A DNA stretch of 57,663 nt from a virus: IMG/VR virus record IMGVR_UViG_3300045988_060146; one strand, written 5' to 3'. The first letter of the stretch is position 1, and each line of letters opens with the position of its first letter. The position numbers and the translations under genes were made by a program. Positions 1 to 54,193 of the stretch are shown piece by piece. The notes beneath the pieces were generated by a model. It did not search any database. It was not told where the DNA came from and worked only from the letters and a program-made list of their open reading frames with translations.

Positions 1-208
1 CAGAAACTATGGCAAGGTTTTTCGTGTGTACGAAAAAGCCGGAAAACTTGGAATCGATTGGAACACAGAAAAAAGCCCATACACCTGCAAGGGTGATGTG
101 TTTGCACCATTTGAAACCTTTGCGCCATCTGTAATATTTGAAAATATTGAAACCGGGGAACTTTTCCACTTCTCAAATATTAAAAATGCAGTTGTTAGAA
201 TAGCATAG
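1..208 (+). CDS. Hypothetical protein, 3' part of the junction-spanning gene that starts at 57547
   Basis: Frame of ORF 26..208 is continuous with the ATG at 57547 through the duplicated 55 nt. Combined product is 89 aa. Confidence 0.6.
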   Translation, partial: RNYGKVFRVYEKAGKLGIDWNTEKSPYTCKGDVFAPFETFAPSVIFENIETGELFHFSNIKNAVVRIA

Positions 209-288
209 CCGAAACGCTCCAAAATCGGAGCGTCCACCGTGGAACGGTCTCCCGGTGCTGATGATGGCAGACCAGAAAGGACGTAAAA

Positions 289-549
289 ATGAGATATTGC
301 GGACGGCAGAAAAACGGAAAAGCGTTGCTATTAACGGACGATGAAATTATAAACAATGCGCTTGAACAGGAAAAAAGCGGAATAAAACCGCATTATGCTT
401 TTTATGATTATAAGAAGCATAAAAAAATAACTCCGGCCGGCTGGCTTGTATGGTCTTTAAGTGATGGCGGTTGTGGTGTAGTTTACCGCCGTAAAGATGG
501 GAAAATGATTATTACAACCGGTTTACAAGGTGATTTTTGTTATTGTTAG
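289..549 (+). CDS. Hypothetical protein (86 aa)
   Basis: ORF with upstream AAAGGA; part of the plus-strand operon. Confidence 0.55.
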   Translation: MRYCGRQKNGKALLLTDDEIINNALEQEKSGIKPHYAFYDYKKHKKITPAGWLVWSLSDGGCGVVYRRKDGKMIITTGLQGDFCYC

Positions 550-560
550 GGGGGCACAAT

Positions 561-653
561 ATGAGAGATTTTATCGAGCTTTTAAAGGCTTTCGGGCTTT
601 TTGTGTCATGCCTTGTTATTGGGTACGGCGGATTGTTTTTATTTTTTTATTAG
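561..653 (+). CDS. Small hydrophobic peptide (30 aa)
   Basis: ATG 7 nt after GGGGGG. Product MRDFIELLKAFGLFVSCLVIGYGGLFLFFY has one TM-like segment. Below the ORF-track cutoff. Confidence 0.35.
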   Translation: MRDFIELLKAFGLFVSCLVIGYGGLFLFFY

Positions 654-666
654 AGAGGTGGACAAA

Positions 667-876
667 ATGAAATACAATGAACCATTAACAAAAGAATATT
701 ATGCAGAGCAAAAACGACTTTGGAACGAAATGAACAGTAGAACTAAAATTAACAACGCGTCAGTATTAACGAGCGAGCAAAGATTTGGAGTTCAAAATCC
801 AATATTGCCAAAAGAAGGATGTCAAATTTTAGCATTAGAAATAGTAAGAATTATGATTGATAAATTAGCAGAATAA
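667..876 (+). CDS. Hypothetical protein (69 aa)
   Basis: ATG preceded by AGAGGTGG; inside track ORF 601..876. Confidence 0.55.
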   Translation: MKYNEPLTKEYYAEQKRLWNEMNSRTKINNASVLTSEQRFGVQNPILPKEGCQILALEIVRIMIDKLAE

Positions 877-910
877 GAGGATATACAACGCGAATTATTA
901 TAAACTCGCG

Positions 911-969
911 AGCTAATAGCGATACAATCTAATTAGGTATTCCAGCCGGTGCAAGTCCGGCTATTAGCT
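911..969 (+). ncRNA. Candidate structured RNA: 7-bp closing helix plus two hairpins (three-way junction)
   Basis: AGCUAAU/AUUAGCU helix encloses GAUAC..GUAUU and AGCCGG-UGCAAGU-CCGGCU hairpins. No family recognised. Confidence 0.3.
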
Positions 970-1281
970 TTATATATAAGGCTTTTCAGGTCTTATATTA
1001 TCAATTTAATGTATTTAATTTATAGGTGCTTTTATACAGTTTTACGGCTGTATATATTGCACTCCGTCCGCGCGTCCGGTAAATAATCGCGCCAAGAGGT
1101 CTTATAAATGCCTTTATATTTATATCAGGCTCAAGAGGTGCAACGCCTGAACAAATAATTGTGCGCCCTTTATAGGTGATTTGCGTTACCACCTAATAAA
1201 AACAGATTAACGCACGACAGACCGCGAAAAGGCCAAAAAGTAACTTGTAAACCATGCACGAATAGAAAAGAGGGTTAATGA

Positions 1282-1551
1282 ATGGATAGCGAACTAACCA
1301 CGCTTGACGCTGTAGAACGTGAAATAAGAGCACGCTACAACGGCAAATATCAAAGCGCGCCGGAATATCAGGCAAGTGAGCGCGCCACACGCAAAGCAAT
1401 CACGGATATTTTTCAGTATGTCGCGAATTTTGGCACATGTGACGATGTTCTAACGCTCATAAGCGGCAAGGAATACCGCCGGACGGCCTTCGATAACTAC
1501 CTAAATCACAAAAACTATATAAGCCCAATAATTAAGGCTTGTTATAGATAG
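1282..1551 (+). CDS. Hypothetical protein (89 aa)
   Basis: ORF with AGAGGG RBS. Confidence 0.55.
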   Translation: MDSELTTLDAVEREIRARYNGKYQSAPEYQASERATRKAITDIFQYVANFGTCDDVLTLISGKEYRRTAFDNYLNHKNYISPIIKACYR

Positions 1552-1561
1552 GGGGCGTATT

Positions 1562-1816
1562 ATGTCTAATTATGAATATCTGGGGAAAAAAGAAATATTT
1601 AAGCGTGTTCAGGCGCTAGGCTATGACATGCCAAAAATAAGCGACTTTAATTATATCAAATACGATTGTATAGAGTGGATGGAATCGCACGAGTTAAAAA
1701 TAACAGTTCAAAGGTCCGGTGAATGGTTGCAAGTCGTAGAGAAGCGCGCGCACGTTCACCCGGTCACGCTATTTTGTGACTATCAAGCCGGGAAATATAT
1801 AACGCGTTATTACTAG
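1562..1816 (+). CDS. Hypothetical protein (84 aa)
   Basis: ORF with GGGGG RBS, closely following the previous gene. Confidence 0.55.
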   Translation: MSNYEYLGKKEIFKRVQALGYDMPKISDFNYIKYDCIEWMESHELKITVQRSGEWLQVVEKRAHVHPVTLFCDYQAGKYITRYY

Positions 1817-1838
1817 GGATATTTTATATCCCTTTTTG
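1816..1838 (+). terminator. Rho-independent terminator of the plus-strand operon
   Basis: GGGATAT-TTT-ATATCCC hairpin followed by TTTTTG. Confidence 0.7.
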
Positions 1839-1912
1839 TTGTGCCAAAAAATCAGGCGTGCAGCTGTCGAGCTGTCGCAAGTTATCCGGCTATGCATCCG
1901 GGCATATGTACA

Positions 1913-1941
1913 TTGACAAATGAGTAAAAATATTCTATGAT
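1913..1941 (+). promoter_or_regulatory. Sigma-A-like promoter with no downstream ORF
   Basis: TTGACA, 17-nt spacer, TATGAT. It faces a 350-nt ORF-free, repeat-containing region. Confidence 0.4.
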
Positions 1942-2299
1942 TTTATGATATACACATTTAAAGCCGTGTATTTGACGTTTTAAGGGTTTTTGAGCGTGCT
2001 AACGTGGATTTTATCAAGCGTGCTAAAATAAGCCACAAAACAAGCCGTTTACAATGTCTAAAAATATAATTATAGCATTGCAAGCCGTCAAGCCGTGGCA
2101 AGTTGTGCCGGGTGCAATATCTAACAAGTCGGGCGCACCAACTCATGGAAAATGTTTGAATTTTCAGAAAACTTTACTCAATTAAAGCACAGTGTGAGTT
2201 CTTTGCAAGTTCTCGACAAGTTTTTGTAAAATTTTGCGAACAGATTTTTGAAATCGAAAAACCCAAAAGGTAGGGGGCACTTTTTTCATCCTAAAATTT

Positions 2300-2443
2300 T
2301 TAGGAATTTGAATTTTGAATTGCCAAAAAATAAATGCTCTTGGCACTGTAGTCGCTCTCTCCTAGTTCTTCAATCAATTTCTGCCGTGTCATTTCCGTAT
2401 TAGTCCGGTGTATGTATTCTAATAGTCTGTCTATTTTATCCAT
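2300..2443 (-). CDS. Hypothetical protein (47 aa)
   Basis: ATG after GGAGCAAAAAT; overlaps the upstream stop codon by 8 nt. Confidence 0.4.
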   Translation of the reverse strand: MDKIDRLLEYIHRTNTEMTRQKLIEELGESDYSAKSIYFLAIQNSNS

Positions 2444-2759
2444 ATTTTTGCTCCAATAAATCAAATATTCTGTCAGCCGTGTATACAATATTCCGTCCGT
2501 ACAAGCTCATAAAGTCTGCGATTATTTCCTCTGTTTCTATGTCAATATCACAGCCGTATGAGAATGAGTACACATGCACCAACTCGTGGCATAGTATCTT
2601 GTCGGCCATGTAATCAGACACATTATCAGCTATCGTTACTGTCTTGGTTGTATTATCAGTCACTCCTAAACTTATTGTGCCGTCTGACCGCCTTAATTCA
2701 CTCGATGTGGGCTTTTTGAATTGTATGTGCCACAATGTATCATTAACTCTTATATCCAT
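2436..2759 (-). CDS. Small putative zinc metallopeptidase (HExxH)
   Basis: 107 aa with a CHELVHV motif in an ImmA/SprT-like context. Confidence 0.5.
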   Translation of the reverse strand: MDIRVNDTLWHIQFKKPTSSELRRSDGTISLGVTDNTTKTVTIADNVSDYMADKILCHELVHVYSFSYGCDIDIETEEIIADFMSLYGRNIVYTADRIFDLLEQKYG

Positions 2760-2811
2760 GCTTATGCCCTCTAAAAATGGCTATGAGCATTACTACCCAT
2801 AGCCTTAATAA

Positions 2812-3465
2812 TTACAGTTTTGACGCAAGATTGCTCATTTTGGTGCGTAAAAGGTTGCGTTCATCGGGCGTCATGTCATTTAAAAGCTCTGATATATCTC
2901 CGCTTAATTCACGGATATACATGTCAAGAGCTTTCATTTTATGCTCTTTGTCCTCTGTAGAAGCTCCTTTGTGCATTTCTTTTGTCTCGGTATAATGTCT
3001 CTTTGCTCTGTCATAATTGCTTTCACTCACATGTGGTGCAATCGGTTCAGAGTAGTACATCTTGCCTCGGCTCTTATCCATGTCACGCATATACTCCATG
3101 TCGTTGTAGTTTACCGGCATGTGATAATATGGTGGCTCTTCATATCCTCTACGTGTTCCACGGCCTTTAGGGGCAAATCTGCCATTTGCATAGCGATATT
3201 GGTCGTAATATCTTCTACCACTTTCTTCGCCATATTCTGCCTTAAGGCTTCTTAGGAGTTCTTTGTCGTACTCTTCTTCCTCTTCATCAGCCTTTTTCAT
3301 AGCCTTGGAAATTATTGAATGATACTCAGCTTCTGCAAGGTCTTTTATCATATCTACGACCTGTCCCATCTCGGAAGTGTCAACATTCTCAACGCCCTTT
3401 TCAAGCTCGTTGACAGCTTTCTCTGTAAGACACTCCTGCATTTTGTGTATTCTTTCAACGTGCAT
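2812..3465 (-). CDS. Hypothetical highly charged, Tyr/Arg-rich protein (217 aa)
   Basis: GGGGGCGAGAGT RBS. Acidic run EEEEEY and Y/R/G-rich centre (RRYYDQYRYANGRF..PPYYHMP). Confidence 0.6.
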   Translation of the reverse strand: MHVERIHKMQECLTEKAVNELEKGVENVDTSEMGQVVDMIKDLAEAEYHSIISKAMKKADEEEEEYDKELLRSLKAEYGEESGRRYYDQYRYANGRFAPKGRGTRRGYEEPPYYHMPVNYNDMEYMRDMDKSRGKMYYSEPIAPHVSESNYDRAKRHYTETKEMHKGASTEDKEHKMKALDMYIRELSGDISELLNDMTPDERNLLRTKMSNLASKL

Positions 3466-3476
3466 ACTCTCGCCCC

Positions 3477-3905
3477 CTAACCAATTCGATTTACTGTGAT
3501 GTTAGCATTTGCAACACTGATAGCCTGTGCAGATGTATTCTTGACAGAAATTGCCTGACAGCATCCGCAAGGAAGCCATACATCTGTTGCCATAGACACA
3601 TTGTTAAATGCTTCAACTGCTGTTGGTGTAGAGATTGCCAGTGTAGATAAGTCCGGCTCGCCCTCGACAGCAATAGCTAATGAAATTGCTCCTGCGGTTC
3701 CGCCTGTAGGAACTGCAATATTTCCGTTAAATTCTATTCTGTACTTTGCTTTGCAAGTGTTGGTAGCGCCTTTAAGGTTAATTAATCCGCTCCCTGTTCT
3801 GTGTGAAATATATCCTTTATTGCATACAGACGTTGGCGCATCTGTAAATAATACATTTCCGTTTACTGCAACTGTCTGTGTTGCAACATTTGAAAATTCA
3901 GCCAT
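3477..3905 (-). CDS. BclA C-terminal/C1q-TNF-like jelly-roll domain protein (142 aa)
   Basis: Pattern V.F....G.I.H..GSG...L...G.Y.I.F.G...., then ..V.N.S......ANA.ITV.RIG, with PCGCC cysteines. Assigned by motif recall only. Confidence 0.45.
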   Translation of the reverse strand: MAEFSNVATQTVAVNGNVLFTDAPTSVCNKGYISHRTGSGLINLKGATNTCKAKYRIEFNGNIAVPTGGTAGAISLAIAVEGEPDLSTLAISTPTAVEAFNNVSMATDVWLPCGCCQAISVKNTSAQAISVANANITVNRIG

Positions 3906-4066
3906 AATAAAATCCTCTCTTTCACAAAATAAGGGCAAACATTATAGTCTGCCCTTGGGTTATAAGTAATACTGCTTAGCAGACATAATCTTGTATTCAA
4001 TTCTTCGAGTGGAAACTCGAAAGAAACTCGAAAGAACTCGATTAAGATACTCAATTATTTAATTGT

Positions 4067-4834
4067 TTAGCATCCGCAACCTGTATTACATCCGCATCCG
4101 TTATAAGCATATCCATAAAGGTTGCTTGCCGGGAATGATGGCACCGGTGTAGGTCTTACTGCATCAATAATCTGATTTGTCTGCGCTGCCATTGTAGTAG
4201 TCAGAAGTGCGTTCTGTCTATCCTGTGAAGCAGCTCTACGTAAATCATTGTTCTCTGCCTGTAAGGTTGCAATCTTGTCGTTTGTCAGGAATTCAAGAAT
4301 GGCTCTTGTTCCTGCCTGCTGGCTGTCAATAATATCTCTTGTATTATTGTTCATTGTGTTCTGCAAAGCACAAGTGTTAGTTGCCATGTTGTAGTTTACA
4401 CCCTGGATGGCTTCTCTCGTCTCGCAGCAACAGTTAGCAATCTGTGACTGTAAAGCGTTGGTATTCTGCATATTAGCAACTGTATCAGCGTTTACCGCCT
4501 GTTGTATGCCGTAGCCGGTCTGCATAATGTTTGTGTTTATGCCGTTAAAGCCTGTGAGCATACTGTTGTTCATAGCATAAAAGCCGTCACAAAGTCCGTT
4601 GGAAATGCCATCTAACTTGCTGATAACCGCCTGATTGTCAAAACCTCTCTGAATTTCGCTTCCGACACCACCATTAGTGCCACCGAAACCACCAAAGCCG
4701 TTACCCCAGCCTCCGAATATCGCAAATACTACGATAAGGAACCAAAGCCATGAGCCGTCATTCCAGTTATTTCCGTTGTTTCCGTCCAAATTCGCCACGA
4801 TAGGTACGCTTGGACAATTTCCTGTGTTGAACAT
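4067..4834 (-). CDS. Membrane-anchored Gly/Asn/Gln-rich protein with a Cys-rich C-terminus (255 aa)
   Basis: GGAGG RBS before MFNTG. TM segment WLWFLIVVFAIFGGWG, then GFGGFGGTNGG, a CCCE motif and the C-terminal tail NGCGCNTGCGC. Confidence 0.6.
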   Translation of the reverse strand: MFNTGNCPSVPIVANLDGNNGNNWNDGSWLWFLIVVFAIFGGWGNGFGGFGGTNGGVGSEIQRGFDNQAVISKLDGISNGLCDGFYAMNNSMLTGFNGINTNIMQTGYGIQQAVNADTVANMQNTNALQSQIANCCCETREAIQGVNYNMATNTCALQNTMNNNTRDIIDSQQAGTRAILEFLTNDKIATLQAENNDLRRAASQDRQNALLTTTMAAQTNQIIDAVRPTPVPSFPASNLYGYAYNGCGCNTGCGC

Positions 4835-4890
4835 CTGTTTTACCTCCAAAATTTATTTCATAAAGAGCCGTGCGCACGTTCTCTCATATG

Positions 4891-5088
4891 CTATATTCCA
4901 AAATTACCTTTAATCTGCTTCATTACATCATCAGGATTAATGCCTTTTTCCTTGCATAGGTTTCTTGCCATTTGTTCAATTCCCTTGCTGTTTCCGCTTT
5001 GAGCCATGCTCATTGCGTTCTTAATCATTGGATTTCCCATTACACGATTATTGCTCATTATCTGTTGCATTATTCCCATTACATTCAT
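4891..5088 (-). CDS. Hypothetical Met/Asn-rich small protein (65 aa)
   Basis: ORF translationally coupled (ATGA overlap) to the upstream gene. Confidence 0.5.
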   Translation of the reverse strand: MNVMGIMQQIMSNNRVMGNPMIKNAMSMAQSGNSKGIEQMARNLCKEKGINPDDVMKQIKGNFGI

Positions 5089-5540
5089 GCTTTTTCACTC
5101 TCCTTACTTTGTGTTCGTGGAGTTTTTCTTTGCGCCCCTAAAGATAATTGCTCAATTTTCTCAGATAGTTCGTTGAGCTTTGCCATAATACCCTCTGTGG
5201 CTTTCTCTGATAGGTCAAATTCAAGTTTTTCCGTGTCACCCGATAAAATGTCTGTCTTACCATTTAGAGCCGGTTTAAAAGTCAATGTGCGTATTGTTCC
5301 GTCAGCATTCCAGCTCTTGGCGTATATCTCTGTTAAATCCTGTTTTGGGAAAAATGCTACACTGCCATCCATTGGCACCTCGTTGGGATTGATAGTCTCA
5401 ACTGCCTGTACTACTCTGCCACTTATTCCTTGTGTCGGCTCGGGCTGCTGGTATCTCTGATAGTTTGCCATTGGGTTGTACTGATATGCTCCATAATTAG
5501 GTGTATAATTCATCATTGGTTGCTGATACGGCATGTTCAT
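5085..5540 (-). CDS. Hypothetical protein with a Q/N/Y/P-rich N-terminus (151 aa)
   Basis: GGAGGAAAACAAAG RBS. N-terminus is MNMPYQQPMMNYTPNYGAYQYNPMANYQRYQQP; C-terminus is coiled-coil-like. Confidence 0.6.
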   Translation of the reverse strand: MNMPYQQPMMNYTPNYGAYQYNPMANYQRYQQPEPTQGISGRVVQAVETINPNEVPMDGSVAFFPKQDLTEIYAKSWNADGTIRTLTFKPALNGKTDILSGDTEKLEFDLSEKATEGIMAKLNELSEKIEQLSLGAQRKTPRTQSKESEKA

Positions 5541-5658
5541 CTTTGTTTTCCTCCAAAACTTCCTCTATCGCTTTAATGACAAGGGATAATGTCATTAGGT
5601 CGATTTTTTGTAACTCACTTTTAGCAAATATTTTTTCTCTCACATCATCGTCAAACAT
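5497..5658 (-). CDS. Hypothetical protein (53 aa)
   Basis: ATG after GGAGATGATGTT. First ORF after the putative attP; below the ORF-track cutoff. Confidence 0.35.
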   Translation of the reverse strand: MFDDDVREKIFAKSELQKIDLMTLSLVIKAIEEVLEENKDEHAVSATNDELYT

Positions 5659-5690
5659 AACATCATCTCCTTATGACTAAATTGTGGCAT

Positions 5691-5723
5691 AAAAAAAGAG
5701 AAGAGCATTTCCATGTTCTTCTC
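5691..5723 (-). terminator. Rho-independent terminator (minus strand)
   Basis: GAGAAGA-12 nt-TCTTCTC hairpin followed on the minus strand by a U7 run. Confidence 0.65.
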
Positions 5724-5761
5724 ATATTTGTGTCATATAATGGCTTTTCTATATACAATTT

Positions 5762-6038
5762 TTACTACACACTTTTTGGGGTGGTTACTACACAGTTACT
5801 ACACACTTTTCGCATTAAAATGCATTAAAATACATAGAATTTTATATTTTTTACGATTTTACGAAAGCTCCGCAGACCCTTTGTTTTCCTAGGATTGCGC
5901 CGTTATTTACGAAATCGTATGGCACTCCTTGATATACATAATAATTTTACCAGTTTTAGTATAAAAATACCCTACGAGCGTTGATTTTTCAACATTCTGT
6001 AAATTGAGAGTGTGTACTACTACACACTTACTACACAC
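5762..6038. promoter_or_regulatory. Putative attP with five direct TTACTACACA arm-type repeats
   Basis: Copies at 5762, 5785, 5796, 6017 (CTACTACACA) and 6028. They flank about 210 bp of non-coding DNA directly 3' of int. Confidence 0.5.
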
Positions 6039-7218
6039 ATTTTCTTCTATATTCTATGATTTTGTTGTCGGTGCTAACGATTTTTTCAATGTCAGCAAAC
6101 GATTTTTCAGGTGTAACATGTGTATACAAGTCCATTGTCATTTTCAGTGTTGCATGACCCAAATATGATTGAACGACTTTCGGCTCTATCCCTGACTCAA
6201 AACATCTTGTCGCAAACGTATGTCTAAACGTGTGACCGCTAAAAAATGGAAATTCATTGTCACTGCTCTTTGTATCATTTATCCGTCTTACAACTGAACG
6301 TATAGAGTCGCTGTATATAACCGAATTAATTGGTGTGTTAAACCTTGTAACAAACAAATATTCGTTTTGCTCCTTGGGTCTGCGTGCTGAAACTATCTTT
6401 TTAAGCTCAAATTGTTTCGTCAGATATTCCTTGCACACACTGTTAATTGGTACGTGTCTGTGACTCTGCTTGGTTTTTGGTGGCTCAACATGAAATGTCT
6501 TGCCTTTATCTTCAAGGTATTTCTGATACACAAGTGTCTTATTAACATCAATATACCCCTCGTCCATATGTATATCTGCAATCGTGAGTGCAAACAGTTC
6601 TCCTGGGCGCAAGCCTGTATTAACTGCCACATTATACATGTTGTCGTAAAATGTACCCTTGCACGCTTCAAAAAACTCGTTCTGTTGCTCTACTGTCAAT
6701 GCAAAAGCATTAACTTCTTTGTCTGCTCTCAGCTTTACACCTTTCGCCGGATTCTTAATCATCAGGTCATCTTCCATAGCTCTACTGAACATGTCATTTA
6801 AAATAACCTTGATTTTGCTCTGTCTCTCATACTTATAGTTATCGTCAGAAGCTTTGTCGATAAGTAACTGCACATCTGACTTGCGAATAGATGTTATTTC
6901 ATGGTTTCCTAAGTATGGTGAAATGTTCTTCTTATATATATGCGTGTACTCCCTAATGGTATTGGGGCGCACTCTCTTTTTCTTGTATACATTCATCCAC
7001 CTGTCAAACCACGCATCAAGGGTAATGCTGTCCCTAACACTTGTGAATTGTTGATTGTCGGTCACTGCTTTACTAAGTTCTTTCCGCAGTTCCGGCAACT
7101 TGCTGTTGTAAATTGTCTTGCTCTTGCCGAACCTATCTTTATATCTGCCCTGATAGAGTCCGTCCTTGCGCTGGGTTATTCCGACTCCCAGCTCTTTTCC
7201 TCTCAAATCCTTTCCCAT
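6031..7218 (-). CDS. int: Tyrosine integrase / site-specific recombinase
   Basis: 395 aa. N-terminal SAM-like domain; catalytic region includes HTFRHTFATRC and LGHATLKMTMDLYTHV. Confidence 0.92.
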   Translation of the reverse strand: MGKDLRGKELGVGITQRKDGLYQGRYKDRFGKSKTIYNSKLPELRKELSKAVTDNQQFTSVRDSITLDAWFDRWMNVYKKKRVRPNTIREYTHIYKKNISPYLGNHEITSIRKSDVQLLIDKASDDNYKYERQSKIKVILNDMFSRAMEDDLMIKNPAKGVKLRADKEVNAFALTVEQQNEFFEACKGTFYDNMYNVAVNTGLRPGELFALTIADIHMDEGYIDVNKTLVYQKYLEDKGKTFHVEPPKTKQSHRHVPINSVCKEYLTKQFELKKIVSARRPKEQNEYLFVTRFNTPINSVIYSDSIRSVVRRINDTKSSDNEFPFFSGHTFRHTFATRCFESGIEPKVVQSYLGHATLKMTMDLYTHVTPEKSFADIEKIVSTDNKIIEYRRKCV

Positions 7219-7306
7219 ACTGATTTATGGCTCCTTTCAAAATCAAAAGCCATTATATGATAATTTCTATATTACTACATAATGGCTTATAATTCAATAT
7301 ATCTAT

Positions 7307-7708
7307 TTATATGCTATCTGTCTTTTCGAGGTATTTTTCAAACTCCTTGCGCTTAACTAATCGCTTGCCTCTTCCGACAAAGAGCACAAAAGGACACGAG
7401 GGATTGTTAAGCATATCATTGATTCTGTTAATTCCGATATTGCTGTATTCCGCAGCTTCATCAATCGTCAGCGTTACTTTTTCCCATATTGGCACTTTGT
7501 TAATCATCGCCTGGCTCCTTTCTATCTTTTCCTTAATGGTTGCCACTCTCCGGGAAGTGGTCGTTTTTGAAATTAATAGTCTCTGTGATACCTCTTCAAG
7601 GCTTTTATCAGCAACTAGCAACTTAAAAACTTCCGCTTCTTCATCGGTAAAATTGGCATTTTTCAAAATTTCTTCAAGTTCCGGCTTAGTAAGTTTTGAA
7701 AACTTCAT
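7307..7708 (-). CDS. xis: Excisionase-family DNA-binding protein with an extra sigma-70 region-4-like HTH
   Basis: C-terminus LTIDEAAEYSNIGINRINDML..GKRLVKRKEFEKYL resembles an excisionase HTH. Adjacent to int; start taken at MKFSKL after GGAGATAGG. Confidence 0.6.
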   Translation of the reverse strand: MKFSKLTKPELEEILKNANFTDEEAEVFKLLVADKSLEEVSQRLLISKTTTSRRVATIKEKIERSQAMINKVPIWEKVTLTIDEAAEYSNIGINRINDMLNNPSCPFVLFVGRGKRLVKRKEFEKYLEKTDSI

Positions 7709-7881
7709 AAGCCTATCTCCTATTCTTCGGTTTTGCTTGTACTGTGTATACAAGTATTTGAGTATCGGCATGAGCTGTTACACGGCTTGTTGTCCTCGTA
7801 TACACATTGTCTTTCAAATGGCTCTATATCACTTATAGTTCTGCTATTCATCTTATCATCACTTCCTCTCTGATAAATTAA

Positions 7882-8037
7882 TTAATCTTTAATATTTTCA
7901 CTACCCCACTGCTCTTGTATCTCATCATCGGTCTTATCTCGTCCGTGGATGTCGTACCACGCAAACGCTACCTCTATCAGCCCGATTAGACCGAATACTA
8001 TGAGGGTGGTGTATACTAATGTTGTTGTGTCGGTCAT
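7882..8037 (-). CDS. Small membrane protein (51 aa)
   Basis: ATG starts 1 nt after the YopX stop codon (TAGCATG). One TM segment, LVYTTLIVFGLIGLIEVAFAW. Confidence 0.4.
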   Translation of the reverse strand: MTDTTTLVYTTLIVFGLIGLIEVAFAWYDIHGRDKTDDEIQEQWGSENIKD

Positions 8038-8038
8038 G

Positions 8039-8437
8039 CTATCCCTCGCTTTCTAATAACTCCGGATTGTCAAAGACGCTTCCGACAACTTCATATTCAG
8101 TATCATATTCAAGCCTGTGCTTATAATATTTTTCGTTAGGAATTGTACATATAATTTCAAAATCTCCGAATGTTATGAGCACATTCCCCTTGCTATTATT
8201 TATTTTTACAATATCATTCTCCCAAATCAGCTTGCCGTTCTTATCTTTTAAGCCTGTGCATCGGCAGATAGTATCTCTGTCCACATCATAAGCACACACA
8301 AGTACCGGTTCATCAGCTTTGCCCTGTAACAAACTTGTAGCAATCTTGCATGTTCCATCTTCACAAGTGATTAGAGAGCCTGTAACCCATTCTCCGCTAT
8401 CAAGTCTCTTGGCCTTAAATAAATATCTATCGTTCAT
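8039..8437 (-). CDS. YopX-family protein
   Basis: Starts MNDRYLFKAKRLDSGEWVTG and ends VGSVFDNPELLE, as is typical of YopX. Confidence 0.75.
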   Translation of the reverse strand: MNDRYLFKAKRLDSGEWVTGSLITCEDGTCKIATSLLQGKADEPVLVCAYDVDRDTICRCTGLKDKNGKLIWENDIVKINNSKGNVLITFGDFEIICTIPNEKYYKHRLEYDTEYEVVGSVFDNPELLESEG

Positions 8438-9073
8438 CTAATTTTCTCCTTTCGGCTTTTTGCACCGCTCAAATTCGATAACCCACACCCAAGGGTTCGC
8501 ATTCCAACCGTAGCAGTCAAGGTCGGATTTCTTGATGGTGGTGGTCCAAAGTTTTTCCCATTCCATCATCATTTCATCACATCGACTGCACTCTTCTTCT
8601 GTCCCATAACAGCACTGCGAACCGCTTTCTTCGTATGTATTAAGACAATCCCAACAATCAGGATAAGCTCCCTCTTTTATCACATCAACCGGCTTCATCT
8701 CCTGCAACCGTTTCACCCTCACATCCGTAACCTTAAGCCAAATACGTGCGGCTTCTTTCGGCATGTGGATGGATGGTTTCCAATGTAAACCTTCTGATAT
8801 CCATGAATTATTATCTGCCTTATACCAAAAAATGTGAGCTGCTGCTTGAATAAATGTTTCTCGGACATAAAGAATATCGCCCGACTGATATGGAGCTTTT
8901 CTGATACACGGCTCATTTTTTCCGTTATACAACATCAGTTCATCTTTAATATATCCAGTCCATTGTGGATTTTCTCCTGACAAGAATTTTACCAGCCGAC
9001 GGGTGCAACTCTTTCTACCTTCCAGAATCGCCCTAACCATTTCTGTATTAAATAAAATCGGTTTAATTGCCAT
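8438..9073 (-). CDS. ASCH-like domain protein
   Basis: N-terminus KPILFNTEMVRAILEGRKSCTRR is typical of phage ASCH proteins. Cys-rich C-terminal half. Confidence 0.5.
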   Translation of the reverse strand: MAIKPILFNTEMVRAILEGRKSCTRRLVKFLSGENPQWTGYIKDELMLYNGKNEPCIRKAPYQSGDILYVRETFIQAAAHIFWYKADNNSWISEGLHWKPSIHMPKEAARIWLKVTDVRVKRLQEMKPVDVIKEGAYPDCWDCLNTYEESGSQCCYGTEEECSRCDEMMMEWEKLWTTTIKKSDLDCYGWNANPWVWVIEFERCKKPKGEN

Positions 9074-9085
9074 CTTCTTTCTCTC

Positions 9086-9481
9086 CTATTCCGTTTCTGA
9101 TTGAAGCCAATCAAGTGTGCATTTTTTACATATTTTTCTAATTTTATTGTTATCGAGTTCACTTTCACTAGCATAAGGGCACTCTTCCAAATCCATAGAA
9201 TCAATGCAACCACTAAATAGTACACTCGCTAATTCTTCATCCGACATATTTCTTATCCTGTCGGCATTGGTCTTTCTGCTATCACATCTGCAACAAGGCT
9301 CATTATCTCTTGAATTGCTGTTGCGCTGGCAGTTACAAGTGCTATTAATACTGCCATTCAATTCAGCTAATTTGTTATAATAGTATCTTATATACTCCTT
9401 GCCATACATATTTACTGTCTTTTCAAACTCGTAAATAGCATTACATTCCGCAAGCTCTTTTATTTGTTTGCTACTACACAT
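9086..9481 (-). CDS. Hypothetical Cys-rich protein (131 aa)
   Basis: ORF in the tightly packed early operon. Confidence 0.55.
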   Translation of the reverse strand: MCSSKQIKELAECNAIYEFEKTVNMYGKEYIRYYYNKLAELNGSINSTCNCQRNSNSRDNEPCCRCDSRKTNADRIRNMSDEELASVLFSGCIDSMDLEECPYASESELDNNKIRKICKKCTLDWLQSETE

Positions 9482-35715: not shown

Positions 35716-36747
35716 TTAGTCTTTGAGCAGATAGTATGTTGTAATTAATCCAACATAACCATCTTGCTTAAGACCTCTATTCTTTTGAAATACCATGACA
35801 CATTTAGTGAGATAGTCACTCCACTCTTTGTAATCAGTATCAAGTTTGTAAAAATGGTACTTGTCATGCAGAGTTTTTCTCAGCCACTTAATGGCTGTCG
35901 GGCAGTTATGCCTCTGACCGCTCCACAAATTGTGATTTTTAGCAAATCTCTGTGAATTGGCTCCAAACTTGCCATCTTCTTTAAGCTCGTTTGTGTCAAA
36001 TCCGATGTTCATGGCATGTTGCCATTTTCTTACATCATCATTATTGAGGTAATATTCCTCATTGCCTTTCCAAGTGTTATTCTTTACTGGAGTTGCTGTC
36101 GGTGCCGAACTATTTTCTATTCCGTCACCCTTGTCAAGCTCAACATAGAGTAAGTTAGCGTCAGTACTGTTATTCAGACCGCTACAAGTAAACGCACTTG
36201 AATACTGCCAGCCATACAGAGAATGTTGAATAACAGGCTTCTTTGCGCTATTAGGCTCATCACCAATAGACATTCCCTTAGTTGATGGATAGCGTGCAAT
36301 CCAAAATGGACAATTAATCTGATTTGCGTATGGTGCAATGTACTGATTATAAAAGCTAAGCCCTGTGTATACACCAAAGTTAAGCCCAGCACTCTTGATA
36401 ACACTCTGATATGTGTTGATAATATCAATAAGTGTCTGTCCAAGTCCTTGCTGGCACTTATCTTCAACATCTAACCAAACAAAGGTTTTCCGTCCGTTAA
36501 GTGTCTGAATGACCTTATTTGCGTCTGTCTTTGCTTTCTCTACTGTTGTAGCGTATGAGTAGTTGTAAACACCTTGTATTGGCATTCCTACATCAGTACA
36601 GCCTTTCCAGTTTTGCTCAAAGGTTTTATCCGGATTAAGGTCTTTGCGGATTATTTTTAGGATTGCAAATTGCACTCCGGCCCACTTAACCTTGCTCCAA
36701 TCAATATTTCCTTGATATGACGATACGTCAATTCCTTTATATGCCAT
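35716..36747 (-). CDS. Endolysin: GH25 muramidase plus C-terminal PG_binding_1 repeats
   Basis: MAYKGIDVSSYQGNIDWSKVK..VQFAILK (GH25). C-terminus FQKNRGLKQDGYVGLITTYYLL (PG-binding). Confidence 0.88.
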   Translation of the reverse strand: MAYKGIDVSSYQGNIDWSKVKWAGVQFAILKIIRKDLNPDKTFEQNWKGCTDVGMPIQGVYNYSYATTVEKAKTDANKVIQTLNGRKTFVWLDVEDKCQQGLGQTLIDIINTYQSVIKSAGLNFGVYTGLSFYNQYIAPYANQINCPFWIARYPSTKGMSIGDEPNSAKKPVIQHSLYGWQYSSAFTCSGLNNSTDANLLYVELDKGDGIENSSAPTATPVKNNTWKGNEEYYLNNDDVRKWQHAMNIGFDTNELKEDGKFGANSQRFAKNHNLWSGQRHNCPTAIKWLRKTLHDKYHFYKLDTDYKEWSDYLTKCVMVFQKNRGLKQDGYVGLITTYYLLKD

Positions 36748-39215: not shown

Positions 39216-39641
39216 TTACACTTCTTTCACAACTGCTTTCAACATGTATTTAACTGAGTAGAGAGAGGGTTTTACTCCTACTATTGTAAAGTCTGCGGAA
39301 GTCGAATCAACTAATCCGTTTTCATCCTTTGTAGGCTCGCTATCAAGCCAAATAACGTCACCTTTTTTAAAAGGGTATTCTCCTCTGTCTGTTAGCAAAA
39401 CAGCATCAAAATCAGCCGTATTAAAGCCATATTCCTTGTTCTGCGCTTCTCCTCCGTCAAACGATATATTTGCCCGAAAATCAACAGGCTCTGAAAAGCC
39501 TGTTTCTTCATGGGTGTAATATATCTTCTCTCCGTCCTCTGTCTCATAAAACTTTAGATTTCCGTCCTCGTCTTTTTCATAGACTGTGACAGTTTGACCT
39601 TGAAGCGCGTATTTCATGGCCTGCTTATTGATGTCAAGCAT
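39216..39641 (-). CDS. Head closure/adaptor-position protein
   Basis: 141 aa. Function assigned by position only. Confidence 0.4.
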   Translation of the reverse strand: MLDINKQAMKYALQGQTVTVYEKDEDGNLKFYETEDGEKIYYTHEETGFSEPVDFRANISFDGGEAQNKEYGFNTADFDAVLLTDRGEYPFKKGDVIWLDSEPTKDENGLVDSTSADFTIVGVKPSLYSVKYMLKAVVKEV

Positions 39642-39903
39642 TTTTCTTTATCTGCTTGTAAATCTGATTAACACCGGTACTTGCCATGCCCGACACAATG
39701 CCAACTGCTATTGCGTCAAGAATGTTGTCCGCCGGATAACCGGGAATTACAAACATTCCAACAATACCGAGTACTCCACCGGCTACACCTACGATAATAG
39801 GAATAATATTATCTTTAACCTGTGGTATCTGCTTTGAAGCATATCCGATTAAATAAGTAATTACCATAATGGCAACTACTGTAGGTACTTGTGTAAAGTC
39901 CAT
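39634..39903 (-). CDS. Holin (Listeria Hol118-like)
   Basis: 89 aa with 3 hydrophobic segments and a charged tail: ...KQIPQVKDNIIPIIVGVAGGVLGIV...GIVSGMASTGVNQIYKQIKKN. Confidence 0.7.
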   Translation of the reverse strand: MDFTQVPTVVAIMVITYLIGYASKQIPQVKDNIIPIIVGVAGGVLGIVGMFVIPGYPADNILDAIAVGIVSGMASTGVNQIYKQIKKNA

Positions 39904-40274
39904 CAGTTTTTACCTCCTTTGCCTAAATGGATTTCCTCAATCTCATTTTTCATTTTTGTTACCATACCATTACCACCGAGTGCGTGGTATGCGTCATACA
40001 TCTCGCAAAAATTCTGATACGCATACGAGGGAATTTCGCCAAGCTTCATGTACTTATCATGGTATTCGATAAGCTGTACTCGTAAAAGTAGCATTGTACC
40101 TTTTCCGTTTGCTTGTCGTAGCTTCTTTTCCTCTTCAATGCGTTCATTTCTTTCTTTTGTGTCTATTGCTTTTTGCTTTTTCTGCTCTTGTAAAAGCCAA
40201 ACAATATAACCCAAAAGTGCTGTCAGGACAATTGGCAAGGCAATAATGTATGTCTGATAGATTAAATTATTCAT
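39903..40274 (-). CDS. N-terminally anchored membrane protein (possible holin partner)
   Basis: TM segment IIALPIVLTALLGYIVWLL followed by a charged helix. TGATG-coupled to the holin gene. Confidence 0.45.
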   Translation of the reverse strand: MNNLIYQTYIIALPIVLTALLGYIVWLLQEQKKQKAIDTKERNERIEEEKKLRQANGKGTMLLLRVQLIEYHDKYMKLGEIPSYAYQNFCEMYDAYHALGGNGMVTKMKNEIEEIHLGKGGKN

Positions 40275-40414
40275 CTTACAGCCTTTCGTCTTTGGTAATT
40301 GGCACACCGCCCACCACCACTTAATGTGTACCGCCTGCTACCACTTTACCGACATCAGTAAAATGGTAACGCACAATCTTCTTATCTTTTTATATAATGC
40401 CCTATAGGCAAGAT

Positions 40415-52544: not shown

Positions 52545-52670
52545 TTTATTTACCTCCTACGAAAGATAATAAGAGCGTGCCGCCTTATTCGCTCAACTCT
52601 ACGATTAGTAATAACAACAAACAGGCAGTCGTAGTTCTGCTTTTCGGTAGCTAACCTAGTTTGTTGTAAT

Positions 52671-52750
52671 CGGATAGACAGGAATCGAACCTGTGGCTCC
52701 CTCAATTACTGCTGTTGCAGTGGTTGTTCTTCCAACTGAACTACTATCCG
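52671..52750 (-). ncRNA. tRNA-like element lacking a normal anticodon loop
   Basis: Perfect acceptor (CGGAUAG/CUAUCCG), D arm (GUUC..GAAC) and T arm (ACAGG-UUCGAUU-CCUGU). The middle 30 nt fold as ACUGC-AACA-GCAGU. Confidence 0.5.
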
Positions 52751-52961
52751 AAAAGGCAAGATACACTCCATCAAAAGGCTCATCAAAACACATTACAGAA
52801 TTTTGAAGTGTCTCACCCCATTGCTTTCAGTCGCGCGTACCTACTAGCAACTTGTTTTTGTGTGTTTTCTTTTATTTTTCCGAAACTGCTATATTGCAGG
52901 CCTCCGTCAGCATTACGCAACCGCTATTCAAGATATAACAGCTCGCACTAAACCGACATAT

Positions 52962-53110
52962 GATTGATGTGGTGTGGATTTGAACCACACATAAAGCGTG
53001 CACTCTTTACGTTGGAGGGAATCGAACCCATAGGCATAACCCAAATGTTTTTAATCCATATGCCTGTCTCCTGACCATTCGCTACTTACCCTTTTGTATA
53101 CACATCAATA
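52962..53110 (-). ncRNA. Composite tRNA-like element with two T-arm motifs
   Basis: A 9-bp terminal helix (53101..53109 pairs with 52963..52971) stacks on GUGUGG-UUCAAAU-CCACAC. There is also a variable-arm-like hairpin and an internal GGG-UUCGAUU-CCC. Confidence 0.35.
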
Positions 53111-53130
53111 GTCGGTGTCCCCCGACTAGC

Positions 53131-53216
53131 GCAGATACAAGGACTCGAACCTTGATAACGATTTTACTCGTTAGAGAGATTAGCAATCTCCTGTGATACC
53201 ATTACACCATATCTGC
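53131..53216 (-). tRNA. tRNA-Ser (anticodon GCU), type II
   Basis: Hand-folded cloverleaf: acceptor GCAGAUA/UAUCUGC, anticodon loop UUGCUAA, long variable arm AACGA..UCGUU, T arm CAAGG-UUCGAGU-CCUUG. Confidence 0.85.
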
Positions 53217-53377
53217 AAGCGAGTGTTTTTTTTACTTGGTTTCCACTCACCCAAGGATTTTTTAGTCAGCCGCAAGCGGCTCAATCCAGTTCCCTGTACT
53301 AAGTTTATCCGGAATATTAATTAGTACCTGCATTTCTCTAATAAACGCACTCGGAGTGTACTGGCAATAACGCCAAT

Positions 53378-53449
53378 CGGCAAGGTTGGGAATCGAACCC
53401 ACGACCAATCAGCTAATAGCCGACTGCTCTACCACTGAGCTACATGCCG
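53378..53449 (-). tRNA. Aberrant tRNA, anticodon loop CUAUUAG (AUU); possible pseudo-tRNA
   Basis: Good D arm and T loop. However, there is a U-U mismatch in the acceptor, a G-A mismatch in the T stem, one extra nt before the 3' acceptor strand, and A34. Confidence 0.45.
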
Positions 53450-53694
53450 TTAAACAGAACCAACCTGATAGCTCTGCTTAAGCAAAAAATACGAAAAATT
53501 TCATTAAAGGGAAGAACCCTTAATTGCAGAAATGATACTATGCAACAGTTAGTCGGCACCTTTAGACAGGGACATGCGTTATGATTTTCTGTTGTTTATT
53601 GGTAGAGTGTTGCCCAGCTGTTTACCCGACTTGTATCTCACGCAACACCTTGTAGCTGCTACCATATCTTACGCTATATTTTATTTCTGCAAGC

Positions 53695-53766
53695 TGGCTT
53701 GATAGGACTCGAACCTACAACTACTTGATTAACAGTCAAGCGTTCTACCCGTTGAACTACAAGCCA
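53695..53766 (-). tRNA. tRNA-Asn (anticodon GUU)
   Basis: Acceptor UGGCUUG/CAAGCCA, D arm GUUC..GAAC, anticodon arm CUUGA-CUGUUAA-UCAAG, T arm GUAGG-UUCGAGU-CCUAU. Confidence 0.9.
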
Positions 53767-54118
53767 ATAATGAGGGTGAAGTCTAAGGAGTGGCAACACC
53801 CTCCGGAGATATAAATTTGTATGTGCTGTAGGAAAAGAACTAACGAAACCTACAGCAAAGGACATGTGAGGAATTGCACCTCACCTAAGACTCATATGAT
53901 TTGAGTTGCCCTAGTTTAACAATTAATTAAAGGGGGTATATATGTCTACTCTGCCTGTTACAGATGTCTTTGCGACAGGTTGGTTTTCACGCTCGTGCAT
54001 TGTGGGATTATGCACGATTAAACCCTCACGAGCCTTGTGACGGCTCTTAACAGCTTTCCACTATGAGGGTGAAAGGAACTACTAAGTCCAATGTCGGGGA
54101 ACCAAGTAAACCCCGAAC

Positions 54119-54189
54119 AGGGCATGTTGGATTTGAACCAACGAATGCGGGAATCAAAATCCCGTGCCTTACTGCTTGGCGAATGCCCT
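54119..54189 (-). tRNA. tRNA-Gln (anticodon UUG)
   Basis: Acceptor AGGGCAU/AUGCCCU, anticodon arm CGGGA-UUUUGAU-UCCCG, T arm GUUGG-UUCAAAU-CCAAC. Resembles E. coli tRNA-Gln. Confidence 0.88.
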
Positions 54190-54193
54190 ATAT

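Follow-up and report, generated by a model that had tools for sequence, protein, structure and literature searches.

Morons are autonomous accessory genes flanked by their own promoter and terminator, as exemplified by HK97 gp15 and by bor and lom of phage lambda, and they typically comprise one or two genes. A second described system, the exosporium of the Bacillus cereus group, is encoded on the chromosome and includes BclA, F-Anchor, and the ExsF/BxpB anchors, which are stand-alone TNF-like proteins of about 150–170 residues; the clefts of the ExsF trimer bind Pro-rich exosporium leader peptides (PMC12357932). Both systems are relevant to a block of genes in the IMG/VR virus record IMGVR_UViG_3300045988_060146, a DNA of 57,663 nucleotides that was analyzed over its whole length and is referred to here as the window. 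A 55-bp direct repeat at its ends identifies the window as a complete circular phage genome, and nearly all of its genes lie on the minus strand. The block (5658→2300) consists of eight co-oriented minus-strand open reading frames (ORFs) located just beyond the phage attachment site. We interpret it as one copy of a mobile, self-contained, moron-type accessory operon carried by phages of gut and rumen Clostridia and used to condition the membrane of vegetative cells, and assign this interpretation a probability of about 0.42. A preliminary description of the same DNA had read the block as lysogenic-conversion cargo that is deposited on the host spore in sporulating lysogens, but a spore-coating role is unlikely. 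The literature on phage-borne BclA, ExsF, or exosporium modules yielded no description of this cassette.

In the window lineage, the first gene of the cassette is g53 (5497–5658), an acidic ORF of 53 residues that is additional to the seven ORFs listed in the preliminary description. It is followed by g151 (5085–5540), whose product has an N-terminus rich in Pro, Gln, and Tyr, a small conserved β-rich core, and a C-terminal helix, and by g65 (4891–5088), encoding 65 residues rich in Met, Asn, and Gln. The central pair comprises g255 (4067–4834, within an ORF extending to 4849), a membrane-type protein rich in Gly, Asn, Gln, and Cys, and g142 (3477–3905), a stand-alone jelly roll resembling TNF, C1q, the BclA C-terminal domain, and ExsF. 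The remaining genes are g217 (2812–3465), with a product rich in Tyr, Arg, and acidic residues; g107 (2436–2759), an optional member encoding a small HExxH metallopeptidase-like protein; and a small terminal ORF, g62/g47, of 62 residues (2300–2488) or of 47 residues when read from the ATG at 2443 (2300–2443). The seven ORFs listed earlier are present on the minus strand where they had been placed, and the motifs attributed to their products were all found: GFGGFGG, CCCE, and NGCGCNTGCGC at residues 46, 135, and 245 of g255, PCGCC at residue 112 of g142, and HELVH at residue 58 of g107. The compositional biases are likewise real, though moderate, at 2–5-fold relative to the remaining phage proteome (Met 5.3-fold in g65; Asn and Cys 2.3-fold in g255; Pro 2.8-fold and Gln 2.3-fold in g151; Tyr and Arg 1.8-fold in g217). 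When each gene was compared with 2–20 distinct gap-free variants taken from contigs of relatives, the ratio of nonsynonymous to synonymous substitution rates (dN/dS) of the eight ORFs was 0.035–0.15, and no internal stops were encountered. Values for individual genes include 0.15 for g53 (19 variants), 0.07 for g151, 0.04 for both g65 and g217, and 0.14 for g62/g47; the integrase of the same phage gave 0.054. The low ratios and the lack of internal stops establish all eight ORFs as genuine protein-coding genes under purifying selection.

The cassette is a conserved unit found well beyond the window. A g142 profile was used to scan a genome collection, giving 59 loci; four metagenome loci brought the set to 63, and these were analyzed with iterated hidden Markov models. 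The 59 genome loci are mostly from Lachnospiraceae, Oscillospiraceae, Ruminococcus, Acutalibacter, and other Clostridia, and at least 563 IMG/VR contigs contain g142. The order g151-(g65)-g255-g142-g217 is fixed in ~56 of the 63 loci and is shared by Ceridwen and the L065-type phages described below. In at least 23 loci, the cassette is preceded by a small gene for a helix-turn-helix (HTH) protein of ~70 residues, of the sigma-70 region 4/LuxR type. The contexts of the cassette family are phages and prophages, not chromosomal sporulation loci.

The predicted architecture at the 5′ edge of the cassette is that of a moron, a terminator directly adjoined by a housekeeping (sigma-A) promoter of the extended −10 type. 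In the window, the putative intrinsic terminator (5691–5723, minus strand) consists of the hairpin GAGAAGAACATGGAAATGCTCTTCTC (5723–5698) and a run of seven T residues (5697–5691). The predicted promoter (5674–5689, minus strand) comprises a TG extension at 5689–5688, the hexamer CACAAT at 5686–5681, and a start-site-like CA at 5675–5674, and it precedes a ribosome-binding site (RBS; GGAG, 5670–5667) and the ATG at 5658. Most other loci also have a strong hairpin (free energy, dG, −10 to −23) and a run of five to nine T residues upstream of the cassette, with stem sequences that are unrelated between loci. Straight after the T-run come the pattern TGn(T/G)A(T/A)AAT, a CA six to seven bases further on, an RBS, and the first gene; the promoter element aligns in 38 of 46 loci. 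All 439 other hairpin-plus-T-run sites of the same loci were scored as a control. The −10-like element was found at 74% of the cassette-upstream sites and at 15% of the others, the TG extension at 60% versus 5%, and the CA at 56% versus 1%. The terminator is predicted to insulate the cassette from upstream transcription. Promoters for sporulation sigma factors, which had been put forward as a check on the link to spores, were not detected in a scan with B. subtilis consensus patterns: the full two-element sigma-K, -E, -G, or -F pattern is absent upstream of the window cassette genes and occurs in at most one of 56–63 loci per gene family. The bare sigma-E −10 octamer CATACANT has a single occurrence in the window, at ~2727 within g107, and 3 of 57 loci have it upstream of g255. 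Within the cassette, terminator-like hairpins are found on the minus strand downstream of g217 (2779–2804) and between g255 and g142 (3931–3956), the latter at a junction that is a hot spot for homing endonuclease insertion in relatives. The window has no clear terminator 3′ of the last cassette ORF, and an Rfam search of positions 1–9000 brought up neither a riboswitch nor any other known RNA at the boundary of the cassette.

The same cassette occupies different positions in different phages. In an abundant lineage of ~45-kb gut phages (type A, represented by L065), it is situated between genes for the portal or MuF-type minor capsid protein and those for the scaffold and capsid, and it is present in 58 of 58 such loci; two further loci (L055 and L041) have it between the head genes and the tail genes. 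Elsewhere (type B), tail-fiber and lysis genes precede it, and an integrase or resolvase on the opposite strand, early genes, or host DNA come next. The window represents a third arrangement (type C), in which excisionase, integrase, and attP intervene between the HTH gene, here fused to xis, and the cassette. The prophage-end position described previously is therefore accurate for the window, where the cassette adjoins attP, but it is not a general rule, given the placements between MuF and scaffold or capsid genes and after endolysin genes. The head-operon placements in several lineages favor a fairly unlikely alternative, in which the cassette is a virion-associated or morphogenesis module whose products are made late and reside on or in the particle, with g142 decorating the head or fiber and g255, g151, and g217 acting as internal or ejection proteins. 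Even in head operons, though, a terminator and the cassette's own promoter stand ahead of it. The cassette has no fixed position relative to structural genes and accompanies different capsid types; its place in the window is behind the early genes and int, with the closest virion gene ~20 kb away.

A different alternative is that the cassette is a lysis or egress accessory whose membrane-anchored complex would tune, as infection ends, the action of holin and endolysin or the breakdown of the envelope. The cassette comes directly after holin and endolysin genes in many phages and after the endolysin gene in the cultured phage Ceridwen; its upstream neighbors include Amidase_3, PG_binding_1, M15, M23, and lysozyme genes, and a holin homolog is encoded 3–7 kb away in L019, L028, L029, and L033. 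A membrane protein with a long predicted helix (g255) and accompanying small peptidases would also suit such a role. We nevertheless consider it very unlikely. The cassette is distant from the lysis genes in the window and in L065-type phages, it possesses its own promoter behind a terminator, which argues against coupling to late timing, and its proteins do not resemble known holins, antiholins, spanins, or XhlA/BhlA.

One natural variant bears on whether the cassette is needed. In L073, a 54-kb IMG/VR contig, window position 5647 is joined to 2327, so that 5646–2328 are missing. The deletion takes the whole cassette, ending inside g62/g47, and spares the terminator, the promoter, and the first codons of g53. 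Among the other relatives of the window phage with sequence across this region, ~37 keep the cassette (~37/38), as do all 58 type A members. Taken together, the L073 deletion and the near-universal retention indicate that the cassette is not indispensable, yet strongly retained. The deletion is a further argument against a virion component, whereas the very high retention within lineages is what that reading would expect. The earlier proposal that the block is cargo is upheld insofar as the block is cargo-like: it has a terminator/promoter boundary, it is cleanly deleted in L073, and the Phage_cap_E capsid, portal, MuF, GH25 endolysin, and holin are all encoded outside it in the window. The spore role attached to that cargo is not supported. 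Also consistent with a virion function are homing endonucleases, which typically invade core phage genes; ORFs of the HNH/AP2 type are recurrently inserted at the g255/g142 and g142/g217 junctions of the cassette. Individual insertions were located at g65/g255 in L013, at g255/g142 in L016, L020, L041, and L235, and at g142/g217 in Ceridwen (L064, 20449–21312), and these six are among the loci listed with a homing endonuclease ORF inside the cassette. Close relatives of the window phage carry insertions of ~1–1.8 kb at the same junctions.

These features place the cassette among the morons with some differences. Like morons, it has a predicted promoter of its own and an insulating terminator, it is inserted at differing sites in unrelated phages, including between structural genes, and at least one natural variant does without it; in the window, it is located at the prophage end. 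It differs in comprising five to eight genes and a dedicated HTH gene instead of one or two genes, in being almost universally retained within lineages, and in occurring also in an apparently virulent phage. The cassette is thus an unusually large, regulated, and well-retained moron-type operon.

The jelly-roll protein g142 gave a confident structural model. The AlphaFold2 (AF2) model is all-β (predicted local distance difference test score, pLDDT, 87.8; predicted template modeling score, pTM, 0.82), with the first strand beginning at residue 2. In Foldseek searches of the PDB, the top matches were the F-BclA C-terminal domain (F-BclA-CTD, 9h38), ExsF (9h3d), BxpB (8d02), ExsFA (7r1m), and BclA (1wck), with expectation values (E) of ~1e-7 to 6e-6 and template modeling (TM) scores of 0.66–0.77. 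Members of the broader TNF/C1q fold (9h38, 1wck, 3twi, and 2r6q) gave E of 1e-7 to 8e-6 and TM scores of 0.66–0.70, and the highest TM scores in the list belonged to 9h3d, 8d02, 7r1m, and 7r5i (TMq 0.71–0.77). Eukaryotic TNF-family ligands and a cyanophage fiber domain were among the lower matches. The confident model and these matches bear out the BclA-C/C1q-TNF jelly roll that had been suspected from sequence patterns. No Pfam family matched g142 at E ≤ 1, and neither sequence nor profile searches of the PDB returned a BclA or C1q chain, the profile search giving spurious matches to tau only. Homology of g142 to BclA and ExsF proteins is therefore suggested at the level of the modeled fold only. 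The g142 family falls into 945 clusters when grouped at 90% identity and 929 when grouped at 50%, and the motifs HRxGSG and GCC are invariant in it. Its 150 best representatives are 90–196 residues long, are matched over almost their full length, and stand alone without a stalk; g142 itself, at 142 residues, has neither an N-terminal exosporium leader nor a collagen-like GXY stalk.

Among viral proteins in BFVD, the best matches to g142 are stand-alone proteins of 130–145 residues from uncultured Siphoviridae, Myoviridae, and Podoviridae (TM up to 0.86), and the TNF-like fold is also frequent at the tips of phage and giant-virus fibers. Because the fold is generic among viral proteins, it is no pointer to spores by itself. 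The frequency of TNF/C1q-like knobs on phage and giant-virus fibers (PDB match 8ke9 among them) could instead be taken to support the virion-associated reading, and such knobs, together with the "BclA protein" entries of gut phage metagenomes, have the same fold as g142. Fiber knobs, however, cap long collagen-like or coiled-coil stalks, whereas g142 and the listed representatives of its family are stalkless and g142 lacks any attachment domain.

The proposal that the cassette decorates spores draws on several genuine observations. Spore-surface proteins (F-BclA, ExsF, BxpB, and BclA) head the list of structural matches to g142, which is, like the exosporium anchors, a stand-alone protein of ~140 residues that superposes on them with TM scores of 0.66–0.77. 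The conserved Pro-rich aromatic motif of g255 recalls, by analogy, the leader peptides held in the clefts of the ExsF trimer. Cassette proteins have no signal peptides, as expected for assembly by the mother cell, and the partner proteins are rich in Cys, Gly, and Tyr. The moron architecture, the prophage-end location in the window and at least eight other loci, the many Lachnospiraceae and Oscillospiraceae hosts, and one flanking host gene, spoIVA, also fit. The resemblance to the ExsF–BclA system nonetheless stops short of sequence or profile similarity and of a collagen-like partner, and the cassette is phage-borne in Clostridia instead of chromosomal in Bacillus. No cassette protein was linked to the BclA_C, ExsF, Ena, YjcZ, or coat families by Pfam, NCBIfam, or PDB sequence and profile searches, so that the BclA_C, DUF3992/Ena, and YjcZ relationships put forward earlier as checks found no counterpart at this level; Pfam matches to DUF3992 (Ena) and DUF4183 (F-ENA) were specifically absent. 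The housekeeping-type promoter, with no full sigma-E, -K, -G, or -F consensus upstream of the window cassette genes, and the placement of the cassette in head operons also speak against a spore role.

The strongest evidence on this question comes from Butyrivibrio virus Ceridwen, the only cultured phage with the cassette. Its cassette is complete, in the order endolysin, small HTH gene, terminator, 125-residue ORF, g151, g65, g255, g142, HNH endonuclease gene, g217, and 108-residue ORF. Ceridwen showed lytic growth only, has no integration genes, and was judged virulent by its describers (PMC7372960). The genus Butyrivibrio is described as non-spore-forming (PMC6249431), and a relative shows a dramatic loss of sporulation genes. 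Since a lytic phage of a non-spore-forming genus carries the full cassette, spore decoration is not its general function, and we give little credence to the idea that lysogens deposit its products on spores; a spore, exosporium, or appendage role would also have to accommodate the promoter type, the missing spore-family matches, and the placements away from prophage ends. Carriage by a lytic phage does agree with a virion-associated module.

The membrane-type protein g255 starts with a short acidic N-terminus and a single hydrophobic helix, followed by a stretch rich in Gly and aromatic residues and by a long predicted helix; it also has an invariant CCC, the conserved Pro-rich motif RPxPxP(A/S)(Y/F), and a tail rich in Cys. 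All 62 aligned members have the hydrophobic segment, the Lys-plus-Arg count being 0.45 before it and 2.0 after it, and in the tail, P230 is invariant and P232 almost so. The protein belongs to phrog_16490 (9e-49), and its family has at least 7993 clusters at 90% identity. Its likeness to YjcZ-family sporulation proteins is compositional only; the YjcZ-family NCBIfam model had no match at E ≤ 1 to g255 or to its homolog in L003. A search of PDB sequences with the g255 profile returned nothing credible, the weak matches to influenza HA2 (E 0.01–0.7) being driven by the Gly-rich hydrophobic stretch and the Gln/Asn-rich helix. Pfam searches of members of the cassette families gave scattered sub-threshold matches only, such as Baculo_PEP_C in 2 of 29 g255 members.

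The cassette families had no Pfam, NCBIfam, PADLOC, or PDB-sequence match above threshold, and those in PHROGs correspond to families without assigned function. The g151 family (phrog_21718) is present in 56 of the 63 loci, always upstream of g255, and its profile matched nothing in Pfam or the PDB. Homologs of g65 occupy the same slot in L003, L013, L055, and Ceridwen, and g53 was found in just three loci outside close relatives. The g217 family, also in 56 of the 63 loci, always comes straight after g142; its members have helical ends around a low-complexity core of variable length that is rich in Tyr, Arg, Gly, Asp, and Ser. The g217 profile had no PDB match, and its sole link to a known protein is a weak match to the scaffold family phrog_233 (E 0.002), which counts toward a head-associated, and hence virion, function. 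The HELVH-containing g107 matched phrog_1233 (6e-13) and phrog_13742, annotated "peptidase" (5e-6), together with DUF6782 (E 0.002), M78 (0.05), and SprT-like (0.06) in Pfam, all under the curated cut-offs. An HExxH gene follows g217 in nine loci and is duplicated in L055 and L041.

In the interpretation that we favor, membrane conditioning in vegetative cells, host RNA polymerase would transcribe the cassette early in infection and in lysogens, with the HTH protein possibly tuning its expression; the stem of the terminator may double as an operator for this protein. As predicted from sequence, g255 would be inserted in the membrane by its single hydrophobic helix, leaving the acidic N-terminus outside and ~200 residues in the cytoplasm. 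By analogy with the leader peptides of ExsF, its Pro-rich C-terminal motif could dock in the inter-subunit clefts of a g142 trimer. The Tyr/Gln/Pro-rich g151, the Met/Asn-rich g65, and the Tyr/Arg-rich g217 might form a low-complexity matrix around this anchor, and the HExxH peptidase may trim a cassette component. What the cassette probably assembles in vegetative cells is a complex tethered to the membrane, with an ExsF-like trimer at its center. Our leading guess, a tentative one, is that in a vegetative cell, whether infected or lysogenic, this complex conditions the cytoplasmic membrane or the envelope, for example, by blocking genome entry by other phages. A more elaborate version, which we regard as doubtful, holds that phages of gut Clostridia possess a hitherto unrecognized five-gene, self-promoted system, in which a membrane-anchored coiled-coil protein would offer its Pro-rich tail to an ExsF-like trimer of TNF fold and, with low-complexity partners rich in Tyr, Arg, and Gln, would give rise to a cortical lattice or a condensate beneath the host membrane. 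Such a phage-made subcellular structure would use the docking logic of the exosporium in vegetative cells.

Several points weigh against the favored interpretation. The docking of g255 to g142 is an analogy, and the NCBIfam exosporium-leader model gives no match on g255. The AF2 model of g255, built from a 33-sequence alignment, was unusable (pLDDT 45), and because of this, its topology and coiled coil are predictions from sequence rules. The cassette promoter is likewise a consensus match only. PADLOC-DB contained no defense-system match, apart from a weak similarity of the g255 helix to the tail of ZorA (E 0.0013), and the retention of the cassette (~37/38 and 58/58) is far above the usual turnover of exclusion or defense cargo. 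Finally, the head-operon placement and the invasion by homing endonucleases fit a role in the lytic cycle equally well.

The cassette is bordered in the window by an integration module related to that of Tn916. A tyrosine integrase of the Tn916 type (6031–7218, minus strand; Pfam Phage_integrase 4e-27, with Phage_int_SAM_3 and Integrase_DNA) is preceded by an ORF (7307–7771, minus strand) in which an HTH of the sigma-70 region 4/LuxR type (residues ~22–86) is fused to a Tn916-type excisionase (residues ~88–154); the corresponding Pfam matches are Tn916-Xis (3e-26) and, on the N-terminal half, GerE/Sigma70_r4. Five copies of the arm-type repeat GTGTGTAGTAA occur in two groups within the 372 bp that separate int from g53, two copies at 6038–6017 and three at 5806–5762, against 0.9 expected; none of 100 shuffled sequences attained five. 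These groups delimit attP (5762–6038), with the crossover at ~5935–5861. Among 80 IMG/VR contigs with the same integrase, many extend beyond int but lose similarity to the window at ~5881–5861 and continue into a host ORF, as seen in the integrated relatives L084, L078, L102, and L096. This ORF starts MAKELVAMLLAGGQGSRLYALT, which we take to be the N-terminus of a glucose-1-phosphate adenylyltransferase (glgC-like). The arm repeats and the divergence of the integrated relatives at this point show that attP is real and confirm the position beside the block proposed for it before.

The fusion of HTH and Xis suggests that a Xis-Int-attP module was inserted between a regulator and its operon. With the module between the HTH gene and the promoter, the cassette would stand alone in the lysogen, at the prophage end opposite int, where its terminator is predicted to shield it against read-through from host DNA. 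In the circular form, the HTH::xis fusion adjoins int, attP, and the cassette without interruption and in one direction, an arrangement like that of Tn916. The window shares with the orf7-xis-int region of Tn916 its types of Xis and Int, the arm-type repeats, and adjacency of the downstream genes to xis-int solely in the circular form, and we liken its small HTH of the sigma region 4 type upstream to orf7. It differs in the fusion of the HTH to Xis and in what lies downstream, which is a phage accessory cassette behind a terminator and not a set of conjugation genes. In some close relatives (L150, L153, L155, and L170), an unrelated segment of ~1.4 kb replaces the Tn916-type int and attP (window 7187–5760), and similarity to the window returns at ~5760, just ahead of the cassette terminator and promoter. 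This replacement indicates that the integration module has been swapped independently of the cassette.

Other features of the window and of related loci were recorded in the course of the analysis. A GH25 endolysin gene with a PG_binding_1 domain (35716–36747, minus strand) is flanked by the tail chaperone genes and the tape-measure gene, and a Hol44-type holin (39634–39903, minus strand) and a second membrane ORF (region 39634–40307) are found amid the head-tail connector genes. The window lysis genes are thus embedded in the virion operon and not downstream of the tail fiber. The possibility that the block is itself the lysis cassette, considered since no lysis genes follow the tail fiber, was ruled out by this endolysin and holin. 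An alternative capsid or embedded small virus was also ruled out, as the phage owns a Phage_cap_E capsid, portal, and MuF, and the cassette has no replication or packaging gene. A tRNA cluster (52669–54190, minus strand) encodes Leu-CAA, Ser-GCT, Asn-ATT, Asn-GTT, and Gln-TTG, of which the anticodon ATT is unusual. A type II hammerhead ribozyme (RF02276; 207–276, plus strand; E 3e-10) reached 58 bits, well above the gathering score of 37; it is positioned just upstream of a small plus-strand gene block, and its ~70–80 nt are the sole part of this neighborhood conserved in the distant relatives L146, L147, and L187. In L001 and L004, two loci from metagenome contigs, an 8-kb prophage remnant (L001 ~1300–9450) beside a host MatE gene retains only MuF, or a fragment of the portal gene, and an intact cassette. 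The two have different internal deletions at the same host site and are ~99% identical to the fuller L003, which abuts three serine recombinase genes. Because of this identity, the deletions may be recent, and they carry no weight for domestication.

The interest of the cassette stems from its spread and experimental tractability, not from a link to spores. It is very widespread, occurring in thousands of phages of Clostridia, mostly Lachnospiraceae and Oscillospiraceae of human and animal guts, and it is almost never lost within lineages, yet none of its proteins has a functional annotation. Its function is directly testable because cultured Ceridwen, growing on Butyrivibrio fibrisolvens DSM 3071, carries it. 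Should the cortical lattice prove correct, the cassette might be an evolutionary source or sibling of the exosporium machinery. If the ExsF-like docking is true, an anchoring principle of the exosporium would be in use outside spores, and if the cassette acts in exclusion or envelope conditioning, it would be a major unrecognized factor in competition between phages in the gut.

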